Shown: one piece after another, positions 6,828-39,543 of the stretch
Layout: every line of letters begins with the position of its first letter
Position numbering within the stretch: position 1 is the stretch's first letter
DNA from: a virus
Direction: 5' to 3' (one strand)
DNA: 64,000 nucleotides
Virus record (IMG/VR): IMGVR_UViG_3300037063_000214
The notes under the pieces: generated by a model
Databases searched by the model: none
What the model was told of the DNA's origin: nothing
What the model saw: the letters and a program-made list of their open reading frames with translations, nothing else
Translations under genes and position numbers: made by a program

Positions 6828-6828
6828 T

Positions 6829-13903: not shown

Positions 13904-14051
13904 ATTCGATGGGGAGCTTCAGGTCATTGATCGACCGAATGGCTCCTAAAAGTGTTTATGGAGGAAAACAAAATATAAGTCCTACCAATTCAATGCTTTA
14001 CGGTGGACGAAGTAGCTACAAAATCTTGTAATTCAGAATAACGGAGATTAT

Positions 14052-14573: not shown

Positions 14574-14594
14574 TCTCGCACAGTATTAGTATGC

Positions 14595-14888: not shown

Positions 14889-14908
14889 ACCGTGGGGCGT
14901 AGCGTAAA

Positions 14909-15337
14909 TCATTGCCAAGTTCCGGTTATGAGTTGGGTAGCTAAACGGCCGTATCTGGCTGGGAGTTCTTTAGCGGCGGCACTTTGTAGCAAGTTTGACG
15001 CTGCTTCGTCCCATTCCCCTCGCTGCATATATGATAAGGTGTTGTGAAAAGCGAGTAGTCCATGGACGCCTACATTAAATCCTACATTAATAAGAACACC
15101 TTGTCGTACTACATCTAATTTTGAGAACCAGGGTAAATTAGCGTTGAGATTAGCCACGACACTTGTCACATCATCATTCAAAATAGAGTTGCTTTGAGCT
15201 AAAGTAATACCGCACCCCCGGCGTTTATCAATACAATGACCTGTTCCTATTGTCCAATAACCATCATCATCTGGGTATGCGTATAAAACTGTTCCTTCAT
15301 CCCGATCGAGCTGTGAAATAATATCTGTAATTGCCAT
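14909..15337 (-). CDS. T4-type lysozyme (glycoside hydrolase family 24), endolysin
   Basis: DEGTVLYAYPDDDGYWTIGTGH ... LINVGFNVG ... WDEAASNL ... ITGTW matches the T4 lysozyme catalytic E/D/T core and the C-terminal WDEAA..TGTW signature. 142 aa. Confidence 0.85.
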   Translation of the reverse strand: MAITDIISQLDRDEGTVLYAYPDDDGYWTIGTGHCIDKRRGCGITLAQSNSILNDDVTSVVANLNANLPWFSKLDVVRQGVLINVGFNVGVHGLLAFHNTLSYMQRGEWDEAASNLLQSAAAKELPARYGRLATQLITGTWQ

Positions 15338-15351
15338 TGTTATCTTCCTAT

Positions 15352-16191: not shown

Positions 16192-16599
16192 GTGATGCGG
16201 CAGAAAAAAGAACTTAAAGGATTGAAGTTTGGATTTTTATCAGTACTAGGTCTTGGGCTTCCCCAAGGAACGCGGAATAGACCTACTTGGATAGTTCGTT
16301 GTATTTGTGGTAAAGAGAAGTCTATTCGTGAAGATGTCCTTGTGTCTAACAGAGTTAAGAGTTGTGGGTGCGCCTCCGGCCGATTAAAAAAATCAAAAAT
16401 GGAAAAACGATATGGTCTTACGAATAAAAAATTTGGTCGGCTCTGGGTTGTATGGCGTATTGGATCTGTTCAAATAGGGAAATCTTATCATTCTCTTTGG
16501 ATGTGTAAATGCATTTGTGGGACATTTCTTACTGTGCAGGGCGGGAAACTTACCAGTAACAAAACTACAAGTTGTTCAGCTTGTGCGATGGAGGATTAA
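16192..16599 (+). CDS. Tandem zinc-ribbon protein (2x LTVL...WxCxCxCG...SCGC motif), putative DNA-binding/regulatory
   Basis: Two copies of the motif: KFGFLSVL..WIVRCICGKEKSI..SCGC and KFGRLWVV..WMCKCICGTFLTV..SCSAC. First gene of the long + operon. Confidence 0.6.
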   Translation: MMRQKKELKGLKFGFLSVLGLGLPQGTRNRPTWIVRCICGKEKSIREDVLVSNRVKSCGCASGRLKKSKMEKRYGLTNKKFGRLWVVWRIGSVQIGKSYHSLWMCKCICGTFLTVQGGKLTSNKTTSCSACAMED

Positions 16600-19500
16600 A
16601 TGTCAGACCAATATGATCAGAAACAATACCCACTAATAGTAAGTCGTACACTTAATCCCTCGATGAAAGCCCTCGCCACCGTGGTGGCGCGGCACGACGC
16701 GGAAATCACTGACGCGGATATCAATTTAATCCAAGATCTTCAAGATTTAAAAAGGTCTCAGATACTTCAAGATAAATCGTGTGTAAGCGGCTGTTTGACT
16801 TACGCACCTCTGCAATATAATACAGCCATTGCTAATACTTTTTTCATCCCCACCTTTGATGTGTTGTGGAACAATATTGAAATACTAACTATCGCTGGTA
16901 ATATGAGTCCCGATTTAACTCAAAACCGTGTGCAAATACCCACACCCCAAAATTGGACGCCAGGTGTTAACGCTCAAGATGCTCAGATATATGTTGTATT
17001 TCTTGAGATATGGTATCAAGCCCTTAATCCAGTTACCGGGCAGGGGTATTATCAAGATCCTATTACCGGTTTGAATTATTTTTATCCTTACGGAGGAGTC
17101 AATCCCGATCCATCCAATGCTGAAATTGTACCTGATGATTCTATTGATCCGTTTGAGGGGTTGTTTACAACTGAGAGAGCACAGATCCAATGGCGCATCA
17201 ATGTTCAACCTGTAGCTCTAACTTATAATTTTCAGACCTACCAATTTGGTCTAGACCCTGATACCACAGATGCCTCACCTTATGGTGTTCCTCTTAATGT
17301 ATACGCGCAAGCTGGGCAACCAGCCCCTATAGCAGCATCTCAGTACCAATTTTACAACATGGGGAATGTAAACGGGGATACAGGTTTATGGCGAGCTGGG
17401 TCTCCTCCATGGAATTCAATAACTACTTACAATCAAGGAGATGTTGTTACTTATTCCGGTTACACATATTCTAGCACTCAAGGTAGCAATCTCAATAATA
17501 TTCCGTCATCTAATTCATCGTGGGTAGTTACTAGTACAGGAAACGTAAATAATTCTTTGGGTACAATGGATGGTTACAGTTATGCAATGCCGCTGGCTGT
17601 TATCTTTCAACGTAACACCGGAATTTTTGATGTGAACTCCAATATATTTGGATGCGCGAGCGCTACTACCCCCAATTCCGGGGTATTGGCGAATCCCGTT
17701 TCTGGACGTTTTGATTCTCGATTAGCCGACCAGATATTTTCTGATAATGTAGTAGACACTCGTATCATAAACACTTTAGATGCTTGGGATGGAGAACTTC
17801 TTTTAGGGAATGGATTTGGAGATTTAGTACAAGGTAAAACACAGTTAGCGCTTTCTCGTGGATTATCATCGGGCAATAAAGCAGAAGATTTAGGTTCCAC
17901 TCTTCCTTACTATGTATCTATTGGCACAACCCCATCAGGAGGTACAATCCCTAATACATTCCCCGCTGGGTTATTTGATGGTTTTATGAACGGGTTTAGT
18001 AGTGATGCACGAACTTATGAATCCACCTATCAAATTACTACGAGTCAAAAATCTACAGGCATCTCAGGAAATAACTGGGTGTTGGGGGATTCCTTTACTA
18101 TTACTTTACCTTCTACATCTCAAGCTACAATTACCGATATTAGTGTAACGGCTCTTGTAACTCAAGGTACAACCAAAGTGCCCGCAGCTTTGTTACAGGG
18201 TCAGATTACTATTACAGGGCTAGGGTCTTCATCCGCCACAGTTACCTTTACTACAAATCTTACCGGTACACTCTTTGATCCGGGGTCTAATAATCTTTAC
18301 GCCACTATTAGCACAACTTATGCAGCTGGTACGAATGTAAATCTTCAGCAAATTCCATTTACTGTGGATGGTGGAAGTATTTTTGACGCACAAGCAGGTG
18401 CAACAATGCCTGTGTTTGGTATATCAGAATATGATGTACAAGTGCCACAAGTAGTCCTGGCACCGTCGAATCCTGTATATCAAACGGGGGGCGCTTCATT
18501 TGGTGTTTCAGCTAACTCTGTATATGCTATAAGTCCGAAATATTCTGATATTGTATTGGGTACAAAAATTTGGCTGGCAGTACCAGGTTCTCTGGGAACA
18601 TCCCAGACGATAGGTGGAAATTCTGTAACTACTTTCATGCTTCCAATGACCGGCATATCCGGACAACTAAATGGTTTGTACTGTACCTCAGCATGGGATT
18701 TAGCTTCTGACGCACCCTATACAATATCTTCCTGTGTTATGACATCTACGACCCCAGCGGGAATTATGCTTGTTGTTCAACTCCAAGCTTCTGTATCCCC
18801 AAGCTCTACTATTATTTTTTCAATCTTAGCTCAAAACACTGTTCAAACTACTTACAACGCTCCGGTGAAAGGTATTACATCAATTGAAGAAACTGTTATG
18901 TTTGGTAACTATCAATTGAACCAAAACGCAAGCCAAAACTTTCCTTGTGATACGCGAGTCGTGGTAGAAAATGTAAGTCAACCCGGAGGATCAGGCACAC
19001 CCACTACAATAGTTTTAGGGGCTAATGGATGCACTATAAAGGGAATATCCGGAAATGATGTGTCAAGTTTGATTTGGGTAGCAGATAATTCAGGAAATTT
19101 AAATTCCCTTCCAATCACCAGTATCAATTTTGTAAATGATGTAGTAGTTGTAGTTGTGCCAGGTACTGTAAATCTAGTAGGAAATTCTGCTCAACCATTT
19201 TTATTTTGCGGTAGTATTTTGCCCGCCTTATCTGCTACATCTACCTTTATTGTAGAAATTCGTTACATACCTTATCAAGGGGAGGGTGTGATTAATAGAG
19301 ATTATGAAATTTTAGCATCAGAAGATAACGCACTGGTGACATCTAACGGAACGGGTTCCGCCCCAATTATTGGATTAACAGATGTTTATCCCTATAACAG
19401 AGAACTGCCAATTATTACCACGCTCCCAGCGCAATCAAGTTGGGGAGATGCCGGTCTGACTAACACTCCACTAGCTTCTGTATTCGATTCAAATTATGTA

Positions 19501-20640
19501 GCTATGCGAGCAGACAATGTAGAAACTACATTTTTGGTTCCTTTACATACAAATGATTTTATACCCCCTATCAATAAAGATACTCGTAAAACTATACGTT
19601 TTATAACCCCAGGGCAGCGTGGCTTTGCTACAGCAACTCCCCACATCGGGTTCGCTATTACAGCCCCCACCCCTCGTACAGTATTAGGACAGAATCTACA
19701 GAACACTACTGCACCAATTACTTTATACGTGGACAACTCCGGAGCTGGGAACGACAATAACAGCGGATTGACGGCGCTTGAAGCTAAGGCTACATTTGCT
19801 GGGGCTATGGCCGAACTTCCTCCAGTATTGAGTTTCCCTTGTGTAATTATTTTCAATTCAACTGGGGTGCCTTATAGTATTTCAGCTCTTCAAAGTTCCC
19901 TGCAAACAGTAGCTTTAGGGGATGGTGATATTCGCTCACAGAAACAGTACTGTTTGGGAAATTTGTCTCGGACTATTCAAGGAGAAGGCAGGTTAGTAAT
20001 TTCTCAAGCCCCGCTTGCTTCGAGTCCAGTGATAATTACAGCATCAGGATTCGCAGGATTTGGAGATGGGCCTACGGCTGCTTTTTACATTGATACCAGT
20101 CGAGTAATTTTAAATGGTATACAGTTTGTAGGGTTCACCAATCCAGCTATTGTAGCGTATAACGCTGATATTGATATGGTTGGATGCTCATGGATTGGTA
20201 ATGCACAAGCAGGGTCGTACATTGGTTGTGACAGCGTTATTCTAGATGGTGGATATACATCCTTGGCAGATAACACCACAGGACATGTATGTGTGCAGTC
20301 AAATTTAACTTCTTCGAATCATAATCTCATAGTTAGCGGACCATCTGTCCCCCCAGAGCCTGGTATTTTTTATGTAGGAACTAGAGGGTCTACCGTAAAT
20401 CTGCAAGTACATGCAGCTGGTTCTTCATCGCAGACAGATGAAAATTGGACAGTACCCACACCTACATTTATTGTAGTAGAAGCTCAATTGAATTCCAGTG
20501 TAGCAGTATCATCTACTTTTCAAACTAATGGATCGGCTGTATTACAAGCCAATTCTGTATTACAACAAACAGCAGTTACTAATTCGTTTTTAGGTGGGGT
20601 GGTGGTAGATGCTAGTTCGTCAGTAGTGACCCAAGTATAA
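16600..20640 (+). CDS. Giant fibre/adhesin-like structural protein (1346 aa) with a CBM5/12-like motif
   Basis: TAAATG coupling. WNSITTYNQGDVVTYSGYTYSSTQ...SSW is a CBM5/12-like motif. Thr/Ser/Asn/Gly-rich. Confidence 0.65.
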   Translation: MSDQYDQKQYPLIVSRTLNPSMKALATVVARHDAEITDADINLIQDLQDLKRSQILQDKSCVSGCLTYAPLQYNTAIANTFFIPTFDVLWNNIEILTIAGNMSPDLTQNRVQIPTPQNWTPGVNAQDAQIYVVFLEIWYQALNPVTGQGYYQDPITGLNYFYPYGGVNPDPSNAEIVPDDSIDPFEGLFTTERAQIQWRINVQPVALTYNFQTYQFGLDPDTTDASPYGVPLNVYAQAGQPAPIAASQYQFYNMGNVNGDTGLWRAGSPPWNSITTYNQGDVVTYSGYTYSSTQGSNLNNIPSSNSSWVVTSTGNVNNSLGTMDGYSYAMPLAVIFQRNTGIFDVNSNIFGCASATTPNSGVLANPVSGRFDSRLADQIFSDNVVDTRIINTLDAWDGELLLGNGFGDLVQGKTQLALSRGLSSGNKAEDLGSTLPYYVSIGTTPSGGTIPNTFPAGLFDGFMNGFSSDARTYESTYQITTSQKSTGISGNNWVLGDSFTITLPSTSQATITDISVTALVTQGTTKVPAALLQGQITITGLGSSSATVTFTTNLTGTLFDPGSNNLYATISTTYAAGTNVNLQQIPFTVDGGSIFDAQAGATMPVFGISEYDVQVPQVVLAPSNPVYQTGGASFGVSANSVYAISPKYSDIVLGTKIWLAVPGSLGTSQTIGGNSVTTFMLPMTGISGQLNGLYCTSAWDLASDAPYTISSCVMTSTTPAGIMLVVQLQASVSPSSTIIFSILAQNTVQTTYNAPVKGITSIEETVMFGNYQLNQNASQNFPCDTRVVVENVSQPGGSGTPTTIVLGANGCTIKGISGNDVSSLIWVADNSGNLNSLPITSINFVNDVVVVVVPGTVNLVGNSAQPFLFCGSILPALSATSTFIVEIRYIPYQGEGVINRDYEILASEDNALVTSNGTGSAPIIGLTDVYPYNRELPIITTLPAQSSWGDAGLTNTPLASVFDSNYVAMRADNVETTFLVPLHTNDFIPPINKDTRKTIRFITPGQRGFATATPHIGFAITAPTPRTVLGQNLQNTTAPITLYVDNSGAGNDNNSGLTALEAKATFAGAMAELPPVLSFPCVIIFNSTGVPYSISALQSSLQTVALGDGDIRSQKQYCLGNLSRTIQGEGRLVISQAPLASSPVIITASGFAGFGDGPTAAFYIDTSRVILNGIQFVGFTNPAIVAYNADIDMVGCSWIGNAQAGSYIGCDSVILDGGYTSLADNTTGHVCVQSNLTSSNHNLIVSGPSVPPEPGIFYVGTRGSTVNLQVHAAGSSSQTDENWTVPTPTFIVVEAQLNSSVAVSSTFQTNGSAVLQANSVLQQTAVTNSFLGGVVVDASSSVVTQV

Positions 20641-20642
20641 TT

Positions 20643-23600: not shown

Positions 23601-26258
23601 GGACTTCCTCCTGGTTTGTCTCTTGACGCTAATACAGGATTGATTTATGGAACTCTGGTTGGTTCATATTTTAGTCCAAGTGTGATACAGTATGTAGGAA
23701 CATCAGGGACAATTCACGGTACGGTGACAATTTCTTGGACAGTCGTCCAAAGTATGTTCCAGTTACAGGATAACATTATCGATAGTGAATTACTAGGTAC
23801 AATGTATCCATCAAATAGTAATATCTCTGTTCCTGGGGGTATTATTCCACAAACAGCTTCTATATTATACGGAAGATTGCCCTCTGGATTAACCCTCAGT
23901 GGTACCCCAACAGGACAAAATTTCTTGATCACCGGCACCCCACTGGAGGCTGGATACTTTGATGTCTGGTTTCAGATAACATCAACAAATAATCAATCAT
24001 CATATTTACACCACCGTTTTTCAATTAATTTTATTAATCCTTTGACAATTGTTACGACATTATTACCCAACATCAGCGCTCAATCTTTCGCTCCTTATTA
24101 CGCGCTTTTACAGGGATTCGGTGGAGTACCGCCCTATACTTGGTCGTCAAGTAACTTCCCCGGAGGTACGGGTATCGGGAACTTCTCAGGGCTGACTTTA
24201 TCTAGTAGTGGTGTAATATCTTCAGCATCTCCTTGGACGCAAGCCCCAGCTACTCCTACGGATTTGGGGGATATTTCTATAACTTTAACAGACTCTCGTG
24301 GTAGTAATTCGTCTGTAAACACATCTCTGGATTTATACTACAGTAATAGTTTGACTATTATAACTCCATCGCCTCACGGAATTGCAATAGTGACTGATGA
24401 TCCTAATGGGTACGCTTTTATCATGCAAGCAGCGGGTGGAAATCCACCGTATTCCTGGAGTTATTCTGGTGGTACTTTGCCTAGCGGTATATCATTTAGT
24501 TCTTTAGGTGCGTTTTCAGGTATATGGACTGGAAGTCCATATGTCGCAACTCCAATTACGATTACAGTACAGGATAGTACTTCCCCGACCCCTGTTACTA
24601 CATCGGCGGTTTTCAATATACAAACCGGATCACTTACAGCGGGGATTGAATTTTCAACTGGTAGTTTTAGTTTATTTAAGCCTCGTGTTGGAACTGTAGG
24701 GTTTATTCCACGAGGAGAACCATATCAAGGAACTCTTATAGGGATATGTACTCAGCCCCCAGTAGCATGGCAGATAGCTCCAACAGCAGCTTATTCCAAT
24801 ACTTTATTATCTGGATTAACTTTACAAGCTAGTGGTAACGGGGCTACGGCTACTATTTCTGGGACATACTCAGGAGTGCCTCATGTAGCTACAACTATAG
24901 ACGGAATATCTATTACACAAGTAGCTCGATCTGGAACCTTGACTACTATCACAGCTAATAATACATTACAAGTGGGGGATTATGTTATAGTAACATCTTC
25001 ATCTAATTCATCACTGAATGGAACATGGCTTGTAACATTTGTAGATGGTACATTCCCAGCATCTAATACATTATTCAAATTTAATACTGTGGCCTCAGGT
25101 ACAATTCTTCCCACAGCGGATACAGGAACAGCTACGGGATTGGGGTATATCATACGAGTAATCGCTGTCGATAATTTAGGTGATACAGCGGAGGCTCTGA
25201 TACCCCTTATAACAGGAACTAACTTAGTTGTCATAGGGTGGGATACTATACCTCCATCGAATTCCCCCTTCGGATATTCTTTTCCTTTACCGAATGATAT
25301 TATTACAGCACCTTATGGTCCTCTTCAGCTTATCGCAACCCACGGAGTACCGGTTGGTACTAATACAGATGGTTATAATCAATACACCTGGAATAGCCCA
25401 CAGTTTCCGTTAAACGGCCTCATACTCGCAGCGACAGGAGCAACATCAGGTCAAATATCTGGTGCAGCCTCATCTTTATTTAGTCCAAATCCTTTGAATT
25501 GTAGCTTTACAGTTACGGACAGTATCTATAATCAATCTACAATTATTTTACCCCTATTTTCACAAGTATCTGGACTAACTATTACAACGGTTGTACTACC
25601 TAATGTAATAGCCGGTCGAGCTTACGGTCCGATACAGATTACCGCGGCACTGGGTACCCCTCCTTATACATTCTCTGTGTCTCCGCGTACGGCTAGCCCT
25701 CTACCAACCGGAATCACTCTAACAAGTACAGGTGTTTTATCTGGTACTACTACTTTAGGTGGATACACAGAAAATGTGACACTGCGAGTTACGGATAGTA
25801 TCGGTGCTTATTCAGATACGACCTTCCCTCTGGTCGTTAAAGCTGGGTTGAATTTACAGACAGGTATCGACTATACGGACAGCACAAACACTTTGTCTTT
25901 AGGGTATATAACAGCGGCGGGTAATACTAACGATATAACCCCCAACCCAAATTTGTCTTTTTATGTTATAGCAACAGGGGTAATTTCCACCAGTTTGTCA
26001 AACCTTGTAATTACATTAAGTAACCCCAATGTTAATGCAAATCCCATCAGTCTAGTTAACGGGGTAGCTACATTTAGAATAAGTGAAACAACATCAGAGG
26101 GATTGAGCTTAGCATCTTTAGGTGTCAATAATTTAAGTGTAACAGTAGTGGATTCAGGAGTTAGTGTTACCAAAACATTTACATGGACAGTATACAACGA
26201 TGGAGTCATGGTGGTAGCCCCCGCAACGGGATCACTGCCAACACAAACAGTAGGATAA
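20643..26258 (+). CDS. Giant adhesin/fibre protein (1871 aa) with multiple putative-Ig (He_PIG / dystroglycan-type cadherin-like) repeats and two AYAGY...NNGTF-C modules
   Basis: Repeats such as GGLPPYTWSIPAGALPVGLSINPNTGLISGSP, SGLPPGLSLDANTGLIYGT, GGNPPYSWSYSGGTLPSGISFSS and GTPPYTFSVSPRTASPLPTGITLTSTGVLSGT. Also ANAYAGYTFAVSGFQNSVNNGTFLCT and GNAYAGQSFEVSGFPTAANNGTFYCT. Confidence 0.65.
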   Translation: MSNPNVPLYNSAPATAIVDQNYNLTLSWVPTPDPNTGLYTLYDHWDISSTVDSLPTQLVKFSPPAGWSTAGGSLTFTQVLSAGNVVTLSMQAWLDTAETTYLTNPWEISDLATPRFFPNALVSSTLTFYNGTSNSTSLELGQPLTVTLNPAYVAAGQWQILWPDGTNTGWLPLSIRAITKSFSTPGAGNVVIQTRYSYSGSQYDPPTTLIRQFTQQIYVVDQQSPQTQGTTVGLTGYLGISGQQGFEIVTSSTPGYTIQPWEVIARAIVRDTITNELKLLVATSRYSNASSLFGTMAVDVFPLEGRPHAKGLITPPYELTTTSQTETSPVVISTTSLPNLIVGKSVTQILGGVPLQLTTSAGSGIAPFIWNSTGLPNGIVMNTSGVVSGTPLELGLFYATFSVQDSSIPFSIAEVTLPLLVTTDLLVEIAPGQTDANGNTLVQTGSTLGWAQVNTPYAVQMQVGNINTSVSIPGGLPPYTWSIPAGALPVGLSINPNTGLISGSPCTYNSTTDFSTVYSATVQVTDAIGAKATQTYTMQLEPAMLTFGQLDQPVIYATQQFRLVVPVFGGLSPYVLSDFLIPSSDSSYYSTASLIDGQVILDCNFPQNATGVHTFSLIVRDSASHTANSSFNVNVESQTNESFLVPGFLDYAWQSSTDVSKPTPIPVTGNFSGFILNGLIVELDAVAAAAGGTTIYTDSGFGCSFGGGSANAYAGYTFAVSGFQNSVNNGTFLCTASTTSSLTLNNPNGVAENLFPITFTLTSTSPVTGVLTNVDSPFITTTTYTGTVSGGAGNAYAGQSFEVSGFPTAANNGTFYCTNSSSTTLTLSNPNGVAETGISSPPATAVQSSAKALQVQKGAVLSNGITVAIDPNVPEIEFSGPPSGVIGNAQYIVPLQFQLEFEGSIQATISQTFTTLAANAISPPWLTGDIGAISTTTRPYLFGASQNELVGLNPRKPFYNSPSIPAFSPTPTPTDGPWVAAVQSGSGLPPGLSLDANTGLIYGTLVGSYFSPSVIQYVGTSGTIHGTVTISWTVVQSMFQLQDNIIDSELLGTMYPSNSNISVPGGIIPQTASILYGRLPSGLTLSGTPTGQNFLITGTPLEAGYFDVWFQITSTNNQSSYLHHRFSINFINPLTIVTTLLPNISAQSFAPYYALLQGFGGVPPYTWSSSNFPGGTGIGNFSGLTLSSSGVISSASPWTQAPATPTDLGDISITLTDSRGSNSSVNTSLDLYYSNSLTIITPSPHGIAIVTDDPNGYAFIMQAAGGNPPYSWSYSGGTLPSGISFSSLGAFSGIWTGSPYVATPITITVQDSTSPTPVTTSAVFNIQTGSLTAGIEFSTGSFSLFKPRVGTVGFIPRGEPYQGTLIGICTQPPVAWQIAPTAAYSNTLLSGLTLQASGNGATATISGTYSGVPHVATTIDGISITQVARSGTLTTITANNTLQVGDYVIVTSSSNSSLNGTWLVTFVDGTFPASNTLFKFNTVASGTILPTADTGTATGLGYIIRVIAVDNLGDTAEALIPLITGTNLVVIGWDTIPPSNSPFGYSFPLPNDIITAPYGPLQLIATHGVPVGTNTDGYNQYTWNSPQFPLNGLILAATGATSGQISGAASSLFSPNPLNCSFTVTDSIYNQSTIILPLFSQVSGLTITTVVLPNVIAGRAYGPIQITAALGTPPYTFSVSPRTASPLPTGITLTSTGVLSGTTTLGGYTENVTLRVTDSIGAYSDTTFPLVVKAGLNLQTGIDYTDSTNTLSLGYITAAGNTNDITPNPNLSFYVIATGVISTSLSNLVITLSNPNVNANPISLVNGVATFRISETTSEGLSLASLGVNNLSVTVVDSGVSVTKTFTWTVYNDGVMVVAPATGSLPTQTVG

Positions 26259-26262
26259 AAAT

Positions 26263-28440
26263 ATGCCAACAGTAACAGAACAAATTAAAGTAACAGTAAC
26301 CGGAGCTAATCCAAATACTTATACATATTCTTTACCTGTGGATGTAACTACTGGATCTGGTGGTCCTCTAAGTATTACATTAACCGGCGTAAACCCAGGT
26401 CTGGACACAATTACGGCATCTATGGCATCTCACGGATATACATCAAATCCGGTAGAAGTAGCATGGCAACAAACAAACGGAACAGTGGCGGTAGGTCCTA
26501 TTTCCATAACTACTTACTCTTGTCCTAATGGATTTGTGGGTTATCCTGGTTTGACCGGTATTCTAGGGGGTCCTGTGATAGGTAATTCCCTAGTTCTTAA
26601 CCAAGAAAATGAAAACTGGCCGATTTCAGGATTTAATGACACTTTGGTACCTTGGGGCGCTTCGCATCCTACTCCTGATGGAGGTGGGTATAAATTAAAT
26701 CCAATGATCGTCGTAGAGCAAACATCATCGGGTGCTTACGCTAGTTATTTGGCAATACCTGGAACCGGTGGGAGTTTCACTTTAGATATGACGGGTAGCT
26801 TCGTGGTTAGTACCCCAGGAACTTACACTTTCTTTGTGGCTTTTGTGAACAGTGGCAACTACGGGGTATACATTGGAGGCGGGGCTACGGTAAGTTCCGC
26901 AACTAATGTTATTGGTCCCAACCCTTTTCCTTCTGTTGGACCTGTTAGTGGATTTCCTCTAGCTAGTCAAGTAAGTACAAACCTGGGTACTTATCCTCCA
27001 TACAGCTATATATATGTAAATTTTCCAGCGCCCGGGGTCTATCCATTCGAGGCAATTTATGTGCAAAGAACTTCAATTGATCCGGGGGGGTCTTCAAACG
27101 GAGCTTTTCAAATAGTTTATTTAGCTGGTACGCAACCAGATAATAATACCAATGTTGGATACCAGTCATATCCAGTTTCCCTAATATCAACACCGCCGAA
27201 TAGCAATCCCGGCACGGCACAGTTAGTGTTAACACCAACTGGTAGTGTAGCCCTGCAAGGAACATCTGATACACTCACTCTTGTAGTTCAAAACGTAATT
27301 TATACATCTTTTCCTTATTGTCCAATTTTCGAAGGAGTAAAGGGGTCTCTGTATGTGTCAAATGGGGTTAGTTCCGTTAACCCGAATTATTTTATCTATC
27401 CCACATACAACGGGAACAGCGTCAGCTTGACCGCCGCCGCTACACAAGGGGTTATAAATCTACAAGGAAATAACACATCATGGCAGGGTCGTTTAAGTCT
27501 TGCAGCCGATCCATCAAACAATTGGTTTGACTTAAATTACGGGGGTCAAAGTTTTGATTCCGGCGTAGCAAATACTCAACTTACAGTATATGCTGATGAT
27601 GTGGCATGGTATAATGCAGCAAATAAATCCTTCGATTCCTACGCGCCTCACTACCATGGGTACAACGGGGCGATTAGTTTTGGATTAGAAGTAGACTACA
27701 TGGTTAATCCGGGTTTGAATTCTCCTCCGGTTACATCATCTACGACATCTTTTTGGAGTTCAAGTTTCCCTCTAGGGTGTACAATCACTCTTAGTAAGCC
27801 CTTTTCACCTCAACAACAGGGAACTTTAGGGGACACGGGGAATTCTATTAGCTCGTCTATCACAGCCTCTGGAGGTGTGGTAATAACATCGACTAAACCA
27901 AATATTAACAGCTCTGGGTTTTTGACAGGTTGGACTCTTTATTTGCAGACCCCTCTTACTACCACAAACATTAATTTCAACATCATCGTTAATATTAGTG
28001 GTACGCTTACTTATTTGAATGGCACAAATTTTACTACGAAAGTTCTAACCTATGTTAATAACTACGCCATTCCATGCCTAGTTGTTGGCAGTCAATATCA
28101 AGCGCCAGTGTCTTACAGCTTTAGTACTACACCAGCATCTGGAAATGTTGCTGGCACATTTCAGTTATCAGCAACGGTGTATACAACAGACACGGGATCA
28201 GTGACTTTGAACTTTTTTAGGCAACCTTATCTTGGTGGAACATCTACTATATTGGGTGCTGGTATTTTAGGTACTCCGTATACAGGTACCGTGGGAGGTA
28301 AGACTGTATACTATAAACCCTTTACTCTGACTGTTACTATACCAACCGGGTTAGGGGATATGCTTATGGGATATATAGCAACTGATACTCTTAGTACCTT
28401 GTTTACCACTTATTACAGTTCCACGGAGTATAGTAGCTAA
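26263..28440 (+). CDS. Structural protein (725 aa), Thr/Ser/Gly-rich
   Basis: Long ORF coupled to neighbours; TAATG overlap at its 3' end. Confidence 0.6.
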   Translation: MPTVTEQIKVTVTGANPNTYTYSLPVDVTTGSGGPLSITLTGVNPGLDTITASMASHGYTSNPVEVAWQQTNGTVAVGPISITTYSCPNGFVGYPGLTGILGGPVIGNSLVLNQENENWPISGFNDTLVPWGASHPTPDGGGYKLNPMIVVEQTSSGAYASYLAIPGTGGSFTLDMTGSFVVSTPGTYTFFVAFVNSGNYGVYIGGGATVSSATNVIGPNPFPSVGPVSGFPLASQVSTNLGTYPPYSYIYVNFPAPGVYPFEAIYVQRTSIDPGGSSNGAFQIVYLAGTQPDNNTNVGYQSYPVSLISTPPNSNPGTAQLVLTPTGSVALQGTSDTLTLVVQNVIYTSFPYCPIFEGVKGSLYVSNGVSSVNPNYFIYPTYNGNSVSLTAAATQGVINLQGNNTSWQGRLSLAADPSNNWFDLNYGGQSFDSGVANTQLTVYADDVAWYNAANKSFDSYAPHYHGYNGAISFGLEVDYMVNPGLNSPPVTSSTTSFWSSSFPLGCTITLSKPFSPQQQGTLGDTGNSISSSITASGGVVITSTKPNINSSGFLTGWTLYLQTPLTTTNINFNIIVNISGTLTYLNGTNFTTKVLTYVNNYAIPCLVVGSQYQAPVSYSFSTTPASGNVAGTFQLSATVYTTDTGSVTLNFFRQPYLGGTSTILGAGILGTPYTGTVGGKTVYYKPFTLTVTIPTGLGDMLMGYIATDTLSTLFTTYYSSTEYSS

Positions 28441-29108
28441 TGGCAGACAATCTTGTTTACGGATACGCGGGACCACCATTCAATTTTTTGGGGCATTTCA
28501 GTGCAACGCAATGGAAGGCTTTTCAGAGCTACGTTAACGCTCGCACTAAAAATTTCCCAGCGATTCAACAACATTATCAAATTCGTGCCGCCCAACTGCG
28601 GAAGACCGCTGGTTTACTTGAAAAATTCTACGCCACAGTAAATGACATCCCACTTAACCCAACTTTCAATAAATTGGTTTGGAAACCAGGACCTCAAGGA
28701 CACTTTTACTACCCATTTCGGGATGATCATCTACCCATGGTCGCTATGTCCCAAATAAAATCGTATATGAGAGAACAATTTCAACGAATGGATGAAAGTG
28801 TATTTTCAATGAATCAGCTTCGCAATATCATTGAGAAAACAGAAGATAAAGCTCAAATTGCTAACATAGCTACTACTGATACTACCAGGGATATAGCTTC
28901 ATTAATTACTCAAATCAACAGTTATTTTAAGCAACCTCGCTTTGAGACTGTACTTGTAGACGATGTTTCAAATGTTTATCCAGCCGGGACGAGTAATCCT
29001 CGTTATAGCTGGCATAATTTAAACCCTCGTACACAATGGGAGATTGAACAAGTAGCAAATCCAGCGGGTACAGGAGCGTCTGTAAATATGCAGGATTTAG
29101 GGACATAA
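28440..29108 (+). CDS. Hypothetical structural/assembly protein (222 aa)
   Basis: TAATG overlap start. Non-repetitive composition, unlike the fibres, consistent with a baseplate or assembly protein. Confidence 0.55.
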   Translation: MADNLVYGYAGPPFNFLGHFSATQWKAFQSYVNARTKNFPAIQQHYQIRAAQLRKTAGLLEKFYATVNDIPLNPTFNKLVWKPGPQGHFYYPFRDDHLPMVAMSQIKSYMREQFQRMDESVFSMNQLRNIIEKTEDKAQIANIATTDTTRDIASLITQINSYFKQPRFETVLVDDVSNVYPAGTSNPRYSWHNLNPRTQWEIEQVANPAGTGASVNMQDLGT

Positions 29109-29109
29109 A

Positions 29110-29904
29110 ATGGGTACATATGATTACAATGTATTGACTAGCGACCCAATGTCTAAAGCTCCCATTGGAGCATGTAACCACGTTATCTCCTTTGAGCGGA
29201 TGGTAGTAAATCAAAACGATTTCCGTACTTTGAACTACGCTGGAAACACCACTCTCAATATGAGAGGTCCAATTAACGGAAGTACGAATGTGCAAATTTG
29301 GATTAGTGGAGAAGAGATTTTCTCCGATGATCCCGTTTACGGCTGGCAAGTTGTAATAGACCCAAATCGGATAGATACTTCAATACCGGCGGGTATTTTT
29401 TACAAAATAGTATTTAATCAATCGGTCAGATTAGTAATCCCACTAATTGAGGTATCTTATATTACTATACAAGGGTTCTGCTTAAAGTGCAGCGCTACGG
29501 GGTATGTGAATGATTTAAAACCATCTACTTCAGGTAATTTTTTACATGTTTCTGGAGCTAGTAAGTTAGTGCAAAAATCATTTAAATGGATTCTTGCATC
29601 AATGTGTCCCTTTTACCCTACTTTTATATGTCAGATTAAAAATTATCTAGGGAGAAAACTAGGGGCTCAAATTACAGATACCGATATTCAAACAGAAGTA
29701 GTGAATACTCTTAGTACGATGCAACAAGTTCAACAAGCGCAGGGAACAGTACAAAGTCTTGACCCACGGGAGATTCTAAAAGATATCATAAATGTAGTCG
29801 CTATTATTAGCCCAACTGATCCGACCACAATTTTACTGACAATTACGGTATCTAATTATAGTGGGCAGACGGTACCAATGAATTTTGAATTACCAATGAA
29901 TTAA
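29110..29904 (+). CDS. Hypothetical structural protein (264 aa)
   Basis: Starts 2 nt after the upstream stop; same operon. Confidence 0.55.
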   Translation: MGTYDYNVLTSDPMSKAPIGACNHVISFERMVVNQNDFRTLNYAGNTTLNMRGPINGSTNVQIWISGEEIFSDDPVYGWQVVIDPNRIDTSIPAGIFYKIVFNQSVRLVIPLIEVSYITIQGFCLKCSATGYVNDLKPSTSGNFLHVSGASKLVQKSFKWILASMCPFYPTFICQIKNYLGRKLGAQITDTDIQTEVVNTLSTMQQVQQAQGTVQSLDPREILKDIINVVAIISPTDPTTILLTITVSNYSGQTVPMNFELPMN

Positions 29905-29908
29905 ATAT

Positions 29909-34657: not shown

Positions 34658-37116
34658 TGGCTAATCTTATTAATAATAACCCAGATTTACTATATATCCG
34701 TAGCCGAGAAGATTTACTACAATTTTCTGACAGTCGGCTGAACTCACTTTTACAAGCTGTGGCGAATTTTTACACTACTCGTAATGACCAATCTACGTGG
34801 GGTAATTTTCTTCGAGCCTTGGCGGATGAGCTAGCAACCCTAGATTATGATTATGCCTATGATATCGTCAATAAAAGTCCCAGCTTTCTCACTCCCACGG
34901 ATATTCGTCGCCGCTGGGCAGCACCTTTGTATGTAAGTTCTAACTGGCCCAGCCAAGGGCAGTTTGATTTGGCGTTTAAAGCCATGCTCGTAGAGTTGAT
35001 TGCCGCTTATCAGCAAGGCACCACAGTGGCAGCTATTCAAGATGTAATTTATGCCTACACAGGTATTGATATTCAGGTACAAGAATTGTATAAACAGATA
35101 GGGAACGGAGTTTACGATCAATCTGATAGGAATTCTCTTCTGGTTAGTGTGAATGTGGGAAATGCGGGTTCAAATCCTCTTACAACTATTACATCTCTGG
35201 CACAGCTTCAAACTATCATTCAAAGTTTATATACAGCCATTGATCTAGCAAAACCAGCACATGTGGGGTTGGAATTTACTACAGTATTCAGTGAAGGGGA
35301 GCAATTGGACTGCATACTAAGTCCAACATACTTGACCCAGCAGCAGTACATTACAATGACCCAGGGTGTACAAGCGTACTATGTTAAAACTGGGTATGTT
35401 CCGACCAATCCCCCATTATTTTGGTTGGGAAATACAACCTATTTATTAAATAGTTTGGTTCTAGATTCGAATCAAAATTTTCAGTTAGTGACCGGTTCTA
35501 CAGGATTGGGGGAGACAGGGGTTACTGTACCAGTTTGGAATACCTTATCAGAAGGTACGACAAATGATAATCAACTCACATGGACAAATATTTCCCCCGC
35601 GGTGACAAGTATTGAAATACAAAACAATATAGTTACTGTTAGCCTTAATTTTTCTGCCCCTTTGAGTTTGGGAAATATAGTTACTTTGATAAATTTGGGG
35701 TACGCTACTTTTTTGAACGGTGTAGCTCTTACTGTACTCTCTGTAACGGGTAATACTTTTACAGCTGCCTACAATTATATCAACTCCCCGCCAAATTATG
35801 GACCTACTACCGAAACTCAAGGTACCGCAACTTTTGTTTTTCCGCCAGTGATTACAGCGACTCAGTGGCTTGCCTTACCGTTACAGTGGCAGGCGTTATA
35901 TCAGTTACAGTACACAAATGAGAATTGTCAATCTACCGGAATTAACGATATCTTGCGAATTTATGTGCGCCAAGTTGAAACTCCACCGTGGGGACCGATG
36001 TTGATACAAGCTCCTGTGCTAGACCCAGCGAATCCGTCTACTACAATTGCGGCGTATGGAAGATTATTAAGTCCTACGCTTACACCGAGCGCCTGGTCAA
36101 TATTGCCTAATATTTTTGTAGATGTAACAAGCGCCTATTCTGATGGTATGAACGCTACCTATACTTATATTCCTCGCACTCAATTTCTCCATGATGGGGA
36201 ACAGCTAACCATAACAGGGTTTACAAATCCAGCGTTAAATGTAACCGCTAGGATACATAAGGTTACAAATTTAGTTGCCAATGTGACGGGAGTAAATATC
36301 ACTACTATGGGCTCGCCTCCTGTTAGTACTTTAACTGTAAGTACCGACTCTAATTTTTTATACCCAGGGGCTATTGTTAATTTTGCTAATACCGCTGAAT
36401 CTTTTTTGAATGATACAGAAGTGGTTGTACTTACCGCCAGTCCAACAGGATTTACCGCTATTGCGCCATTGAGTGCTCCAACTTCTTATATTAATTCAGC
36501 GGATACAGGTACAGCAGAGGTTACGTCCTTTCAAATACCTTTAGCTCAAGTTATAGCATTGGAAACTCAGGACGGAACATCGGCAGGGTTAGTAACCCCA
36601 ACTCTGCAATCTGCGTATTACTACTCGGACGGAAATTATATACTAGGGCAAGCTCCAATTAATACAACAGGAGCGGGACAAGGAGAAAGCTGGAATCCTG
36701 GGGAGAGTGTGTTTATCGGACAGTTGATTGTAGATTCTAATGGATACACTCAAATAGCCTTAAATAGTGGAACTACAAATTCCGTTAGTCCTATTTGGTC
36801 TACAGAATTAGACGCAACTACTGAAGATAATGGTGGTGGTGGGTTTGACCTAGTTCGTTTACCTCATCCTATTATTACATCACAAGGAGTTACATGGCAA
36901 AATTTGGGTATGAGTACATTATCTGATCCAAAAAATTGGGTCGGTATATTGAATTTTAATGTAGAAATAATTCCTCCAGCACTTGTTCCTTTTACCGGAG
37001 AAGTAGGTAATTGGGACATTCTACATCTTTATGGTTTAGTTGCTCCCAGGCTTTCGCAGACTTGGGAGATATCGGGTGATCCGCAGGATCAAGATTTCAT
37101 ATTTGGGCTTTTTTAG
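34657..37116 (+). CDS. Large structural protein (819 aa) with three GF-T-N...FTA modules
   Basis: TAATG overlap. NIVTLINLGYATFLNGVALTVLSVTGNTFTAAY; QLTITGFTNPALNVTARIHKVTN; AIVNFANTAESFLNDTEVVVLTASPTGFTAIA. Confidence 0.65.
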   Translation: MANLINNNPDLLYIRSREDLLQFSDSRLNSLLQAVANFYTTRNDQSTWGNFLRALADELATLDYDYAYDIVNKSPSFLTPTDIRRRWAAPLYVSSNWPSQGQFDLAFKAMLVELIAAYQQGTTVAAIQDVIYAYTGIDIQVQELYKQIGNGVYDQSDRNSLLVSVNVGNAGSNPLTTITSLAQLQTIIQSLYTAIDLAKPAHVGLEFTTVFSEGEQLDCILSPTYLTQQQYITMTQGVQAYYVKTGYVPTNPPLFWLGNTTYLLNSLVLDSNQNFQLVTGSTGLGETGVTVPVWNTLSEGTTNDNQLTWTNISPAVTSIEIQNNIVTVSLNFSAPLSLGNIVTLINLGYATFLNGVALTVLSVTGNTFTAAYNYINSPPNYGPTTETQGTATFVFPPVITATQWLALPLQWQALYQLQYTNENCQSTGINDILRIYVRQVETPPWGPMLIQAPVLDPANPSTTIAAYGRLLSPTLTPSAWSILPNIFVDVTSAYSDGMNATYTYIPRTQFLHDGEQLTITGFTNPALNVTARIHKVTNLVANVTGVNITTMGSPPVSTLTVSTDSNFLYPGAIVNFANTAESFLNDTEVVVLTASPTGFTAIAPLSAPTSYINSADTGTAEVTSFQIPLAQVIALETQDGTSAGLVTPTLQSAYYYSDGNYILGQAPINTTGAGQGESWNPGESVFIGQLIVDSNGYTQIALNSGTTNSVSPIWSTELDATTEDNGGGGFDLVRLPHPIITSQGVTWQNLGMSTLSDPKNWVGILNFNVEIIPPALVPFTGEVGNWDILHLYGLVAPRLSQTWEISGDPQDQDFIFGLF

Positions 37117-37136
37117 CTAACAAAATCTTAAATAGG

Positions 37137-38579
37137 ATGATAAAAGCAACTAAAATCGCTTATGTAAGCCCCCCACATGGAGAATTGGTTCTTACCCTAA
37201 TCCATGACGCTAATCCCCGCGCGACCCTCACTTTAGACTTGGGGATTCCCAATTTCACCGTTTTTTCTATGACCTTACCTCTAGCTGAAGGGGAACCTAA
37301 AGCTATGTCAGAACTCATAGCGGAATCTGTCCATGTGCTCCTGGATGAAGTAGCCTCTTTTATGCTTAGCATGGAATATGAAGATGCAGTAATCAAACTT
37401 ATTTATGCAACTGTACTTACATGTTTTAAGGGCATGAGTCAAGAAGCGGATACATCTAAAGAACAAGATGAATCGGGACAAGATCCAACGGTGAAAATGT
37501 TTGAAGGAACATTCGATATTCCGATGGACTTCATCAATGAAACTCAGCGCAAGGTGGTTACAGCTTCCACATCAGCTACAGCATCGTCAAAAATACGCCG
37601 TGATCCACCAACTCGTCATATTGAGTTTACTTACTCTCCGAAAGAGAAGATCAAAGCTATTGATACAGCGCGTGTTATACGGCAGTATAGAAATCGCAGC
37701 CTCAAGCAGCAACCTCGTCCTATGTATGTAATCGTGTATAATCAAATGGGTAGACCCACCGGTACTATTCTCGTTGGCCCCGGTAAAAATTTCAAAAATG
37801 AACTGCTGCATAAGATGAAAAAGAGCAGTGTGGATTTTACTGAGCCCGTAAGTTTTGTCAATGAACAAGAAATGAAATCGTCTCCGCTTAACGGTATTCC
37901 CCGCACTATATCTGTTGGCGGAATGACTTACCAACCGGAGTCTGTTTCTGGGGGAGATATGTGTTTGTATCACGGACCGCAAGATTACATCGTCAAGTTC
38001 GTAGATGGTCGTTCCCAAATATTCCCCGGTCGCCCCACTTTCCGTAAAATGCGGCAATTAAATTTCCCCGTACCCACTAAACGATATCGCTGGACAACTA
38101 TTCCAGAAAATTATTTGAAACAGCCAAAACCTCATATCCCCGAAGAAGAACCGAAAGAAGCGGCCTATGAGGATTCAGAAAAACTAAAAAATACAGTTCA
38201 AGCAGAATCGGTGGATAAGGTAACAAAAGATTTAGTGTATTTAAAACCTATGAAAACCTATGATGATTTAGTACCCTTGGATATTTTGAAGAAACGACTT
38301 CTGCGAGATAAGTTAGCAGATAGACCTATTTTTGAAGGTAAGATGGTAATTGACCGTATTGGGCATAGGGGAGTATATGAAGGTCAATTTAAATTGATCA
38401 TCCCACAGTATTTTATTCGAAGATATGGGGTACAGCGTGACGATGGTACTTTTTCAGTGTATCATTTAAGAAGGGATGGAAAAGCAAGGCGCGTAGGCTT
38501 ACGCCCTGTTCCAGCGGAAGAATTTCGAGAGGCAAAACCCATTGGAGAAGATGATGCAAACGCAAGTGGAGCTGTATAA
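37137..38579 (+). CDS. Basic (K/R-rich) hypothetical protein (480 aa), possibly an internal or DNA-associated virion protein
   Basis: Composition changes sharply from the preceding fibre proteins. Confidence 0.55.
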   Translation: MIKATKIAYVSPPHGELVLTLIHDANPRATLTLDLGIPNFTVFSMTLPLAEGEPKAMSELIAESVHVLLDEVASFMLSMEYEDAVIKLIYATVLTCFKGMSQEADTSKEQDESGQDPTVKMFEGTFDIPMDFINETQRKVVTASTSATASSKIRRDPPTRHIEFTYSPKEKIKAIDTARVIRQYRNRSLKQQPRPMYVIVYNQMGRPTGTILVGPGKNFKNELLHKMKKSSVDFTEPVSFVNEQEMKSSPLNGIPRTISVGGMTYQPESVSGGDMCLYHGPQDYIVKFVDGRSQIFPGRPTFRKMRQLNFPVPTKRYRWTTIPENYLKQPKPHIPEEEPKEAAYEDSEKLKNTVQAESVDKVTKDLVYLKPMKTYDDLVPLDILKKRLLRDKLADRPIFEGKMVIDRIGHRGVYEGQFKLIIPQYFIRRYGVQRDDGTFSVYHLRRDGKARRVGLRPVPAEEFREAKPIGEDDANASGAV

Positions 38580-38862
38580 CGAAGCAACAAATGAATTTAG
38601 AGTTTACTGGCTGGTGGACATGGATCATGAGACTCAATCCTGGCTAGTAAGAGGTCGCAAACTAGCCGTAGCATGGTTGAATTCTTCTCAAGACATAGAT
38701 TTAGGCGGTTTTGCACCATTATGTGTATCCAGAGTTTTTATAACGATACCCGATGACGCGGATTTACCACCAAACGCTCGTAAACTAACTTTATGGACAC
38801 AGTTAGAGGGCGATAGTATGTATGCACTGAATAAAGTGTGTCCTTATATCGGAACGGTTTAA
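38551..38862 (+). CDS. Hypothetical small protein (about 103 aa)
   Basis: Track ORF 38542..38862 begins at a TTG; the first ATG is 38551. Overlaps the upstream gene's end by about 29 nt. Confidence 0.4.
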   Translation: MMQTQVELYNEATNEFRVYWLVDMDHETQSWLVRGRKLAVAWLNSSQDIDLGGFAPLCVSRVFITIPDDADLPPNARKLTLWTQLEGDSMYALNKVCPYIGTV

Positions 38863-38865
38863 AAA

Positions 38866-39543
38866 ATGGTTTATAAAGAGGTTTCAATGCCAATTCAATA
38901 TAAAGATGAGTTTTATACACAAAAGCCACCTATCGACTCGGGTTATATTCGTATCATGAGGGCGGATACCGGAGAAATTCTCTGGCAGCAAAAAAATGTC
39001 ATAACGAATACCGTAAAATGGCTTTTTGCACGGCTCATGGCAAATGCCCTTCCTAACGCTCCGCAGCCGCCCTATACGCTAGGGCAATCTGGGGTGTATG
39101 CTGACCCCCTTTATGGCATCTGGGGGCTTGCAATAGGCTCTGGAAGCCCTAGCTGGGCCCCTGAGACGCAACCTGACCCGACTCCTACTCAAACCGCCTT
39201 GATTTCTCAATTCCTGCGTAAAAAGTTGACCCGTATCAATTATGTGGACACGAATTTTACCCCATTGAACACATTCAGTACCATGGTTGATTTTCAAACT
39301 ACGGTAAATGCGACCACAGATAATATCACGCAAGCAATTAGAGAAATGGGATTGATTGGAGGCGGGACTTTAATTGGAGCAGGGGGACAACCCACTGACA
39401 TGCAAACAGCTCCATATTTTAATCCTACGGGAACCCCCCCAGGACCAGCTGATAGCGTAGTGCTTATAAACTACAAAACACTGCCACCATTGATTCTTCC
39501 GAGCGGAGTTGATATAATTTTCAGCTGGATCCTACAATTTTGA
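38866..39543 (+). CDS. Hypothetical protein (225 aa)
   Basis: ORF starts 4 nt after the upstream stop; last gene of the + late operon. Confidence 0.5.
   Translation: MVYKEVSMPIQYKDEFYTQKPPIDSGYIRIMRADTGEILWQQKNVITNTVKWLFARLMANALPNAPQPPYTLGQSGVYADPLYGIWGLAIGSGSPSWAPETQPDPTPTQTALISQFLRKKLTRINYVDTNFTPLNTFSTMVDFQTTVNATTDNITQAIREMGLIGGGTLIGAGGQPTDMQTAPYFNPTGTPPGPADSVVLINYKTLPPLILPSGVDIIFSWILQF

Follow-up and report, generated by a model that had tools for sequence, protein, structure and literature searches.

A probable tail-tip and baseplate module with three giant conserved protein families in an uncultured relative of the jumbo phage Tunturi_5

The baseplates of contractile tails contain a conserved wedge core, represented by gp25-gp6-gp7-gp53 in phage T4, by W-J-I in P2 and by gp46-48 in Mu; a paper by Buttner and co-workers from 2016, listed among the references of PMC8570332, reportedly treats this subject. 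Here we describe a locus in a 64,000-nucleotide stretch of the virus record IMGVR_UViG_3300037063_000214 (this whole stretch is referred to as the window), which shares with such systems a gp25-like protein, a J-like protein and, probably, a following wedge protein as well as a lysin and a probable spike near the tape measure, and whose wedge proteins are two to three times longer than their T4 or P2 counterparts. Among described phages Tunturiibacter phage Tunturi_5 (PP885688.1) comes closest, an isolated jumbo myovirus of 308.7 kb for which electron microscopy revealed a 113-nm head and a 167-nm contractile tail (PMC11924767). It is followed by phage G, whose gp188 has been linked to T4 gp6 and P2 gpJ (PMC8570332), and by metagenomic huge phages. 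Complex baseplates with many accessory proteins, another likeness to the window, are found in the Herelleviridae (phi812/A511) and in phiKZ and Goslar; for phiKZ a virion atlas gives 40 identified constituent proteins (PMC13250141). An earlier note, made from the sequence of the window alone, had read positions 16192-39543 as a late operon made almost entirely of giant fibre or adhesin proteins, with no recognisable capsid, portal, terminase or sheath gene. Sequence comparison leads us to a different description: this region and the block upstream of it very probably make up a module for tail tip and baseplate, belonging to an uncultured contractile-tailed jumbo phage from a clade that includes Tunturi_5.

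Comparison of the 24-kb region with 50,697 phage records by megablast yielded no match at the DNA level. With proteins, in contrast to DNA, the window proved collinear gene by gene with about 88 kb of Tunturi_5, running from 206.6 kb to 118.4 kb in that genome. Positions 1102-12657 correspond to gp256-gp252, positions 16600-37116 to gp247-gp240, and from position 40130 the correspondence continues with gp192 and onwards; on the Tunturi_5 side the mapping took in nearly the whole genome with the exception of about 5 kb (150-155 kb). Nearly every structural open reading frame (ORF) has a one-to-one homologue in the same order at 32-54% identity, the replication module downstream is also common to both phages, and the two structural blocks add up to 10,130 aa in Tunturi_5 versus 10,647 aa in the window. 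The two phages differ in G+C content (about 41% in the window versus 58% in Tunturi_5), which makes it probable that their hosts are different. They also differ in the length of the J-like protein (1582 aa in the window versus 1239 aa) and of the protein encoded after it (819 aa versus 344 aa), and in about 12 kb of extra genes located between gp240 and gp224/gp222 in Tunturi_5.

Within the supposed fibre operon, the predicted gp25-like protein, the predicted J-like protein and the next predicted wedge protein stand in the canonical wedge order. Going by its matches, the 1582-aa protein is classified as a J/gp6-type wedge protein: residues 602-769 match PF04865 (Baseplate_J) at 2e-16 (60.5 bits with a cut-off of 21.1), phrog_6 ('baseplate wedge subunit') is matched at 1.6e-24, and identities of 45% and 27% connect the protein with Tunturi_5 gp241 and phage G gp188, respectively. 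A single-sequence search of the PDB with this protein returned nothing, and a search with the family profile returned the solved J or 'triplex' chains 8v3w_E (7.5e-7), 9g8s_C (1.6e-6) and 9euf_C, the latter being ORF62 of phi812 (4.8e-5).

The 264-aa protein is encoded directly upstream of the J gene and appears to be the sheath initiator. An exhaustive HMMER search of a 1.84-billion-protein library retrieved 247 relatives, and PF10934 (Sheath_initiator) was matched by 21 of the 63 that were sampled (best 4e-9), GPW_gp25 (PF04965) by two of the 63; three out of eight close relatives gave weak PF10934 matches. The protein resembles phage G gp187 (3e-7), which is the product of the gene preceding the J gene in phage G. 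One relative of this family carries an intein, as judged by Hint and Intein_splicing matches. On the other side of the J gene, the wedge protein expected after J (gp7/gpI-type) is probably represented by the N-terminal part of the 819-aa protein. Residues 9-222 are 47% identical to Tunturi_5 gp240, annotated as 'baseplate protein', and residues 28-210 match phage G gp189 (0.003 in a small database). The gp189 N-terminus in turn leads to phrog_1160, 'baseplate protein', at 4.5e-12, a family that gp240 reaches only at 0.099. Profile searches of the PDB with the 264-aa and 819-aa families gave nothing meaningful. The C-terminal ~120-150 aa of the 819-aa protein are without a homologue among the related loci, and its long C-terminal extension is a candidate for a fibre or receptor-binding part. 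The 222-aa protein is conserved at 41-63% identity across 19 loci and is every time placed ahead of the 264-aa gene. PHROGs, Pfam and the PDB, the latter also searched with the family profile, contained no match to it; it is a positional candidate for the equivalent of gp53, for which no equivalent was otherwise identified. At the end of the run, the 225-aa protein matches Pfam BW3TFN, a baseplate-periphery domain (4.4e-6, 27.2 bits with a cut-off of 27), and phrog_1394, a family of virion structural proteins, and is 46% identical to the virion structural protein gp222 of Tunturi_5.

Phage G shows the same core order, in which the tape measure (gp183) is followed by gp184, gp187, the J/gp6 protein gp188 and gp189 as counterparts of the 388-aa, 264-aa and 1582-aa proteins and of the N-terminus of the 819-aa protein; the 1346-aa protein has an N-terminal match in gp211. 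Its tail set is nevertheless compact, with 3,687 aa in total for gp184-189 and 619 aa for J, and it directly follows the genes for sheath, tube and chaperones, whereas no sheath gene is adjacent in the window and three giant genes are interposed between hub and wedge genes. Large as it is, the module does not stand out within its clade, and baseplates composed of many proteins have been described for other jumbo phages, phiKZ among them.

The wedge assignments bear directly on the idea that all five giants (1346, 1871, 725, 1582 and 819 aa) are receptor-binding fibres or adhesins and that the operon is a host-range cassette without a core structural role. Adhesin-like features are indeed present, because pilin-like beta-sandwich, He_PIG immunoglobulin (Ig) and CBM5/12 (carbohydrate-binding module, CBM) matches are spread among the 1346-, 1871- and 1118-aa proteins. 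The Baseplate_J domain of the 1582-aa protein and the link of the 819-aa N-terminus to a baseplate family speak against such a cassette. So does the end-to-end conservation of the 1346-aa protein, which shares 43-70% identity with 153 relatives, unlike typical fast-evolving receptor-binding tips, and so does the conservation of most of the 1871-aa protein. We therefore consider a pure host-range cassette unlikely. To call the region almost entirely fibre and adhesin was an overstatement as far as the 1582-aa (J/gp6), 264-aa (gp25) and 819-aa (N-terminus) proteins are concerned, and was apt for features of the 1346-, 1871- and 1118-aa proteins.

The 1346-aa protein represents a family without a Pfam domain, and nearly all of its 153 relatives, retrieved from a large database, are 1240-1380 aa long. 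An AlphaFold2 (AF2) model of residues 1-1100 (predicted local distance difference test, pLDDT, 69; predicted template modelling score, pTM, 0.64) is confident for residues 60-890, which are almost all beta and form an array of beta-sandwiches. Residues ~890-1040 (window positions 19270-19720) are the most conserved and are dense in invariant residues, while their pLDDT in the monomer model is below 50; being conserved yet unfolded in the monomer, this stretch may well be an oligomerisation or docking segment. Three of 18 family members gave a CBM5/12 match and one gave a weak Beta_helix match (0.056), and the consensus of the C-terminal part is reminiscent of how right-handed beta-helix proteins begin, so that a C-terminal beta-helix is a possibility. 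The fold matches of the model to phi812 and phiKZ087 chains are weak.

The 1871-aa protein contains five Ig stretches (He_PIG, 4.4e-16). Conservation across 25-30 loci extends over its residues 1-600 and 850-1871, and residues 650-850 are variable. Its counterpart in Tunturi_5 is a pair of genes (gp246 and gp245), and it is split in several other loci too; a single-sequence PDB search with it gave nothing. The 725-aa protein has the highest content of threonine, serine, asparagine and glycine (TSNG, 43%) and the lowest charge (5.5%), shares 32-48% identity with homologues of 418-1059 aa, and its homologue gp244 in Tunturi_5 is annotated as 'minor tail protein'. A conserved N-terminal anchor combined with a variable C-terminus is a pattern that fits the 819-aa protein with its unique tip, fits the 725-aa protein in part and does not fit the 1346-aa protein. 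The best candidates for host-range determinants are the most variable parts, namely the 725-aa protein and the 819-aa protein's C-terminus. No sequence homology to any solved chain was detectable for the 1346-, 1871- and 725-aa proteins, which are probably outer baseplate and fibre components. A more specific proposal is that the three form an outer baseplate layer unlike that of solved baseplates, in which the 1346-aa protein, conserved from end to end, would act as a tailspike that is integral to the baseplate and may be enzymatic (beta-helix), and not as an exchangeable receptor-binding protein; we put this forward tentatively and regard it as rather doubtful.

The block upstream begins with an ORF that is open in frame 1 from base 1 to 1068 and contains 28% charged residues. 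On metagenome contigs with identical genes an ORF of 1110-1118 aa stops just ahead of the 484-aa gene, and the position is that of Tunturi_5 gp257, the tape measure. Sequence similarity to known tape measures was not found; by its position the ORF probably encodes the C-terminal end of the tape measure. The 484-aa protein following it matches Pfam SLT_3 (4.6e-19) and SLT (6.2e-6) and is 35% identical to Tunturi_5 gp256, a 'lytic tail protein'. The 388-aa protein is 41% identical to gp255, a virion structural protein of Tunturi_5, and resembles phage G gp184 (4e-5), encoded by the gene after the phage G tape measure; together with a weak, sub-threshold Pfam match to Phage_tail_tube_init (0.0025), it is possibly of the tube-initiator or hub-proximal type. 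The 1034-aa protein returned no Pfam, PHROG or PDB profile match and is 33% identical to gp254 ('tail protein with lysin activity') of Tunturi_5; a C-terminal module of 68 aa is common to it and the 484-aa protein.

For the 794-aa protein a role as central spike is probable and not proven. Its family comprises 244 members at 53-70% identity and is devoid of a Pfam domain. When the family profile was compared with the PDB, each of the seven best matches was a beta-helix fragment of T4 gp5 (query residues 671-735), but with E values of about 0.6. AF2 modelled the monomer poorly (pLDDT 47), apart from a confident N-terminal OB-like (oligonucleotide/oligosaccharide-binding) barrel. This barrel matched the spikes of R2 pyocin, P2 (gpV), PVC, Pam3 and Mu with probabilities of 0.9-1.0 and E>0.03, and generic OB-folds score beside the spikes; as the monomer model is poor, these fold matches are suggestive only. 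The last protein of the block, with 1118 aa, matches Pfam CBM_5_12 (6.7e-8) and tail-fibre families in PHROGs (2e-6) and is a homologue of Tunturi_5 gp252.

Among the window ORFs of at least 100 aa, most of which were compared with PHROGs and Pfam, none matched a capsid, portal, terminase, tube or sheath family, and to this extent the absence of a recognisable core stands. It does not hold for the baseplate, since Baseplate_J was found directly by Pfam and PHROGs, and remote homology brought out tail-core proteins of the baseplate and none of capsid, portal, terminase or sheath. In Tunturi_5 the genes annotated as encoding the terminase (gp1), the portal (gp7), the sheath (gp326), the protease (gp331) and the major head protein (gp334) are located tens to hundreds of kb away from the corresponding region. 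Homologues of the gp326 sheath, many of them with PF17482, occur on at least 13 contigs equal in size to contigs carrying the 1346-/794-aa families. For one contig, logan:SRR29078145_33038 (243,799 bp), it was verified that both genes reside on the same molecule: the sheath gene is found at ~137-141 kb and the 1346-aa homologue at ~204-208 kb. Given this distance of about 64 kb, a 64-kb window can easily miss the sheath gene. Genes identical to those of the window occur in metagenomes such as ENA ERZ28653482 (scaffold_266, 133 kb) and JGI 3300014491 and on a 176-kb contig; among the 120 of 539 sheath matches listed, none was on a contig of 176,231 or 133,018 bp. A scan of IMG/VR with the Tunturi_5 sheath led to contigs other than those with baseplate modules; exact peptide patterns were used, so that this result is uninformative.

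The missing core most likely reflects the size of the window and not extreme divergence, and we infer that the capsid, portal, terminase and sheath genes of the window phage lie outside of it. Of the two options offered earlier, a core outside the window combined with a large surface-binding region is thus supported by the collinearity with Tunturi_5, by the distant core genes and by the spacing of the sheath gene. The other option, namely that capsid, portal, terminase or sheath is encoded within the window and too divergent to be recognised, is not needed and found no support; we judge it highly improbable. Many ORFs without a family match would be compatible with it, as would the annotation 'portal protein' on Tunturi_5 gp224, the homologue of the 480-aa ORF. 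However, each large ORF has a Tunturi_5 homologue that is distinct from the annotated terminase, portal gp7, head protein gp334, protease and sheath gp326; the 1346-aa model is an array of beta-sandwiches and not an HK97, portal or sheath fold; and the sheath homologues of the relatives are separate genes about 64 kb off. As to gp224, it is only its C-terminal ~200 aa that match the N-terminal ~200 aa of the 480-aa ORF, and the remainder carries GNAT-like and ParB-like motifs, so a portal identity for the 480-aa ORF was rejected. The 480-aa ORF matches no Pfam or PHROG family, lacks the compositional bias of the giants (20.8% TSNG, 27.7% charged residues) and is probably not a fibre. The 'portal' label of gp224 itself looks doubtful, and gp7 of Tunturi_5 bears a portal annotation as well.

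Baseplate_J, gp25-like and spike proteins are also common to tailocins, extracellular contractile injection systems (eCIS) and nanomachines of the type VI secretion system (T6SS) kind, and some of the fold matches were to pyocin and PVC. An origin of the module from such a machine, or from a bacterial adhesin locus instead of a virus, is nonetheless more improbable still than a hidden core, as phage replication and recombination genes and a tRNA gene are present in the flanks, the 64-kb stretch is collinear with an isolated tailed phage and the relatives reside on viral contigs of 240-463 kb.

If the region is a phage tail-tip and baseplate module, as we favour, the first block (1-12657) would, after the tape measure, provide the tube-tip parts, that is a transglycosylase, proteins close to the hub, a probable spike and a fibre-like protein that binds carbohydrate (Table 1). 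The second block (16192-37116), past the reverse-strand lysozyme insert, would contribute three Ig-like or beta-sandwich giants and then the wedge core. By analogy with solved myophage baseplates, the gp25-, J- and gp7-like proteins would polymerise as wedges around hub and spike and nucleate the sheath. The giants and the CBM-bearing proteins would form the outer layer and the fibres, bind host-surface polysaccharide and transmit the contraction trigger, and the SLT enzyme and the spike would breach the wall. Gene identities, synteny and conservation are direct results of the comparisons; where the giants are placed in the particle, and that they bind receptors, is what we infer from the analogy.

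Table 1. Coordinates of genes and other features in the 64,000-nucleotide window
Feature	Coordinates	Strand	Basis or remark
Probable C-terminal end of tape measure; ORF open at window start	1..1068	+	Position
Tail-associated lytic transglycosylase (predicted), 484 aa	1102..2556	+	SLT_3, SLT
Tail-tip protein (putative), 388 aa	2556..3722	+	Tunturi_5 gp255, phage G gp184
Tail-tip protein (putative), 1034 aa	3723..6827	+	Homology to Tunturi_5 gp254
Probable central spike (gpV/gp5-like), 794 aa	6829..9213	+	T4 gp5 profile matches, OB-like barrel
Fibre-like/carbohydrate-binding tail protein, 1118 aa	9301..12657	+	CBM_5_12, tail-fibre PHROGs
Insert between structural blocks	12661..16137	-	Lysozyme, orphan, conserved 261-aa gene
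Orphan, 378 aa	12661-13797	-	T/G/V-rich, low-charge
ORF, 173 aa	14052-14573	+	Within insert
Lysozyme	14909-15337	-	Phage_lysozyme 1.6e-11, phrog_7 endolysin 7e-17
Conserved low-charge protein, 261 aa	15352-16137	-	Adjoins 1346-aa gene in relatives
Two zinc-ribbon repeats, 135 aa, GTG start	16192..16599	+	CxCG...SCGC twice
Giant baseplate or tailspike-like protein (putative), 1346 aa	16600..20640	+	Clade conservation
Ig-domain-rich giant, 1871 aa	20643..26258	+	He_PIG
Variable tail protein, 725 aa	26263..28440	+	Homologues of 418-1059 aa
Conserved baseplate-module protein, 222 aa	28440..29108	+	Synteny
Sheath initiator (putative gp25-like wedge protein), 264 aa	29110..29904	+	Pfam matches of relatives, phage G gp187
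Baseplate_J/gp6-type wedge protein (predicted), long N- and C-terminal extensions, 1582 aa	29909..34657	+	PF04865, phrog_6
Probable N-terminal wedge-type domain, long variable C-terminal extension, 819 aa	34657..37116	+	Tunturi_5 gp240 and phage G gp189 matches
Charged protein, 480 aa	37137..38579	+	Composition, Tunturi_5 gp224 match
Virion/baseplate-periphery protein (predicted), 225 aa	38866..39543	+	BW3TFN, phrog_1394
DNA helicase; start of replication/recombination module, end of structural region	40130..41923	+	phrog_2488 2.9e-95
tRNA-Ala (TGC)	59549-59624	+	Overlaps GTG start of ORF 59579-60595

Several results weigh against this interpretation. Single-sequence PDB, PDB profile and fold searches produced no convincing structural homologue of the 1346-aa protein, and its place in the particle is for this reason a guess. 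The 264-aa protein itself gave no direct Pfam match, its assignment coming from relatives, and the gp7-like and spike assignments, though probable, draw on sub-significant matches or on chained comparisons. Neither the window nor 10 kb on each side contains a capsid, terminase, portal, sheath or tube gene, so that the phage's own copies were not seen. Finally, scans for sigma-70 promoters and terminators yielded counts equal to those of shuffled controls and are uninformative. As these scans do not exceed the controls, the terms 'one operon', 'translationally coupled' and co-transcription reflect gene spacing and should be taken as presumptive.

The 1346-aa protein retrieved 29 loci from IMG/VR on contigs of up to 463 kb, and the order of the module is conserved among them: the 794- and 1118-aa genes are followed by a variable insert that includes one conserved gene in reverse orientation, the zinc-ribbon gene, the 1346-aa gene, the 1871-aa gene (sometimes split), the 725-, 222- and 264-aa genes and J. 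The longest contig carrying an identical 1346-aa protein measures 176 kb, and contigs of relatives extend over 244-463 kb. Conservation of the 1346-, 1871- and 725-aa giants extends throughout a clade of soil and peat phages of 240-460 kb. Since the relatives have their capsid, portal, terminase and sheath genes elsewhere in the genome, there is little out of the ordinary in the finding. As the locus shows, 64 kb of jumbo-phage DNA may comprise a complete baseplate module without any capsid, packaging or sheath gene, and absence of the core from a stretch of this size is consequently not evidence of an unusual virion. For 'hypothetical' proteins of this widespread clade of huge soil and peat phages the comparison offers likely roles as sheath initiator, J-type wedge protein, probable spike and tail lysin. 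What remains novel are three giant conserved families without solved homologues, for which Tunturi_5 represents a culturable relative.

The ORF table confirmed that all genes between 16192 and 39543 are on the plus strand; they encode proteins of 135, 1346, 1871, 725, 222, 264, 1582, 819, 480 and 225 aa. Minus-strand ORFs of at least 100 aa within the run (19494-19856, 25961-26269, 26963-27274, 28927-29349 and 37587-38057) are all nested in long plus-strand ORFs and are treated as spurious. The protein sizes given before (about 6,300 aa for the five giants and about 8,500 aa with two upstream proteins) agree with our counts of 6343 aa and, including the 1034- and 1118-aa proteins, 8495 aa. The T/S/N/G-rich character was likewise borne out, because threonine, serine, asparagine and glycine account for 34-43% and charged residues for 5.5-10% of the five giants, compared with 17-24% and 24-32%, respectively, for the downstream replication genes. 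The gaps along the run amount, in order, to 0, 2, 4, -1 (TAATG), 1, 4, -1 (TAATG), 20 and 286 nt. Tight packing, as claimed earlier, therefore applies to seven of the nine junctions, which measure 4 nt or less and include two TAATG overlaps; ATGA overlaps do not occur, and the final two junctions are loose.

The insert between the two structural blocks is variable. No homologue of its 378-aa ORF was found in 30 related loci, and the gene is therefore regarded as strain-specific. Of the 261-aa protein, the first 150 aa are conserved beside the 1346-aa gene in 27 loci, and the C-terminal residues 175-253 have a domain in common with residues 711-870 of the 1871-aa protein, located in its variable middle. 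The 135-aa protein matches phrog_374, 'HNH endonuclease', at 6e-24, but over the repeat region (FGxLxV...CxCG...SCGC) only. Its gene is placed directly upstream of the 1346-aa homologue in ~14 loci and is duplicated in some. As only the zinc-ribbon repeat matches and the position is conserved, the label HNH endonuclease was rejected; the gene behaves as a conserved part of the module and not as a mobile nuclease. A module of ~60-80 aa recurs in the 1582-aa (residues 337-410 and 1069-1125), 819-aa (310-387) and 1118-aa (938-1011) proteins, and its copy in the 1118-aa protein gave a weak E1_FCCH-like Pfam match.

Downstream, the helicase starting at 40130 is 42% identical to Tunturi_5 gp192 and opens a module that comprises, in addition, a polymerase exonuclease subunit, a weak RuvC-like match, a UvsX-like recombinase, SbcCD-like proteins and a 5'-3' exonuclease. 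Beyond the window, the adjoining 10 kb on the upstream side contain the tape measure, a gene for ~209 aa at the position of the Tunturi_5 chaperone, two small genes and a DnaB-like helicase; the 10 kb downstream contain a 312-aa ORF, small genes and AAA ATPases. It is this 312-aa protein whose start forms the partial ORF (63707-64000, plus strand) listed earlier as a candidate for morphogenesis; the protein has no Pfam match, and the genes after it are small ones and those of two AAA ATPases, not morphogenesis genes. Two proteins encoded on the plus strand within the replication module lack PHROG matches: one of 220 aa (47574-48236) with a fibre-like composition (36.8% TSNG, 8.2% charged) and one of 723 aa (57370-59541) with a composition like that of structural proteins (33.5% TSNG) and with weak Pfam matches to Pro-kuma_activ and Peptidase_S8, suggesting a sedolisin/kumamolisin-like secreted protease. 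Because the tRNA-Ala gene overlaps the GTG start listed for ORF 59579-60595, translation of this ORF probably starts further downstream.

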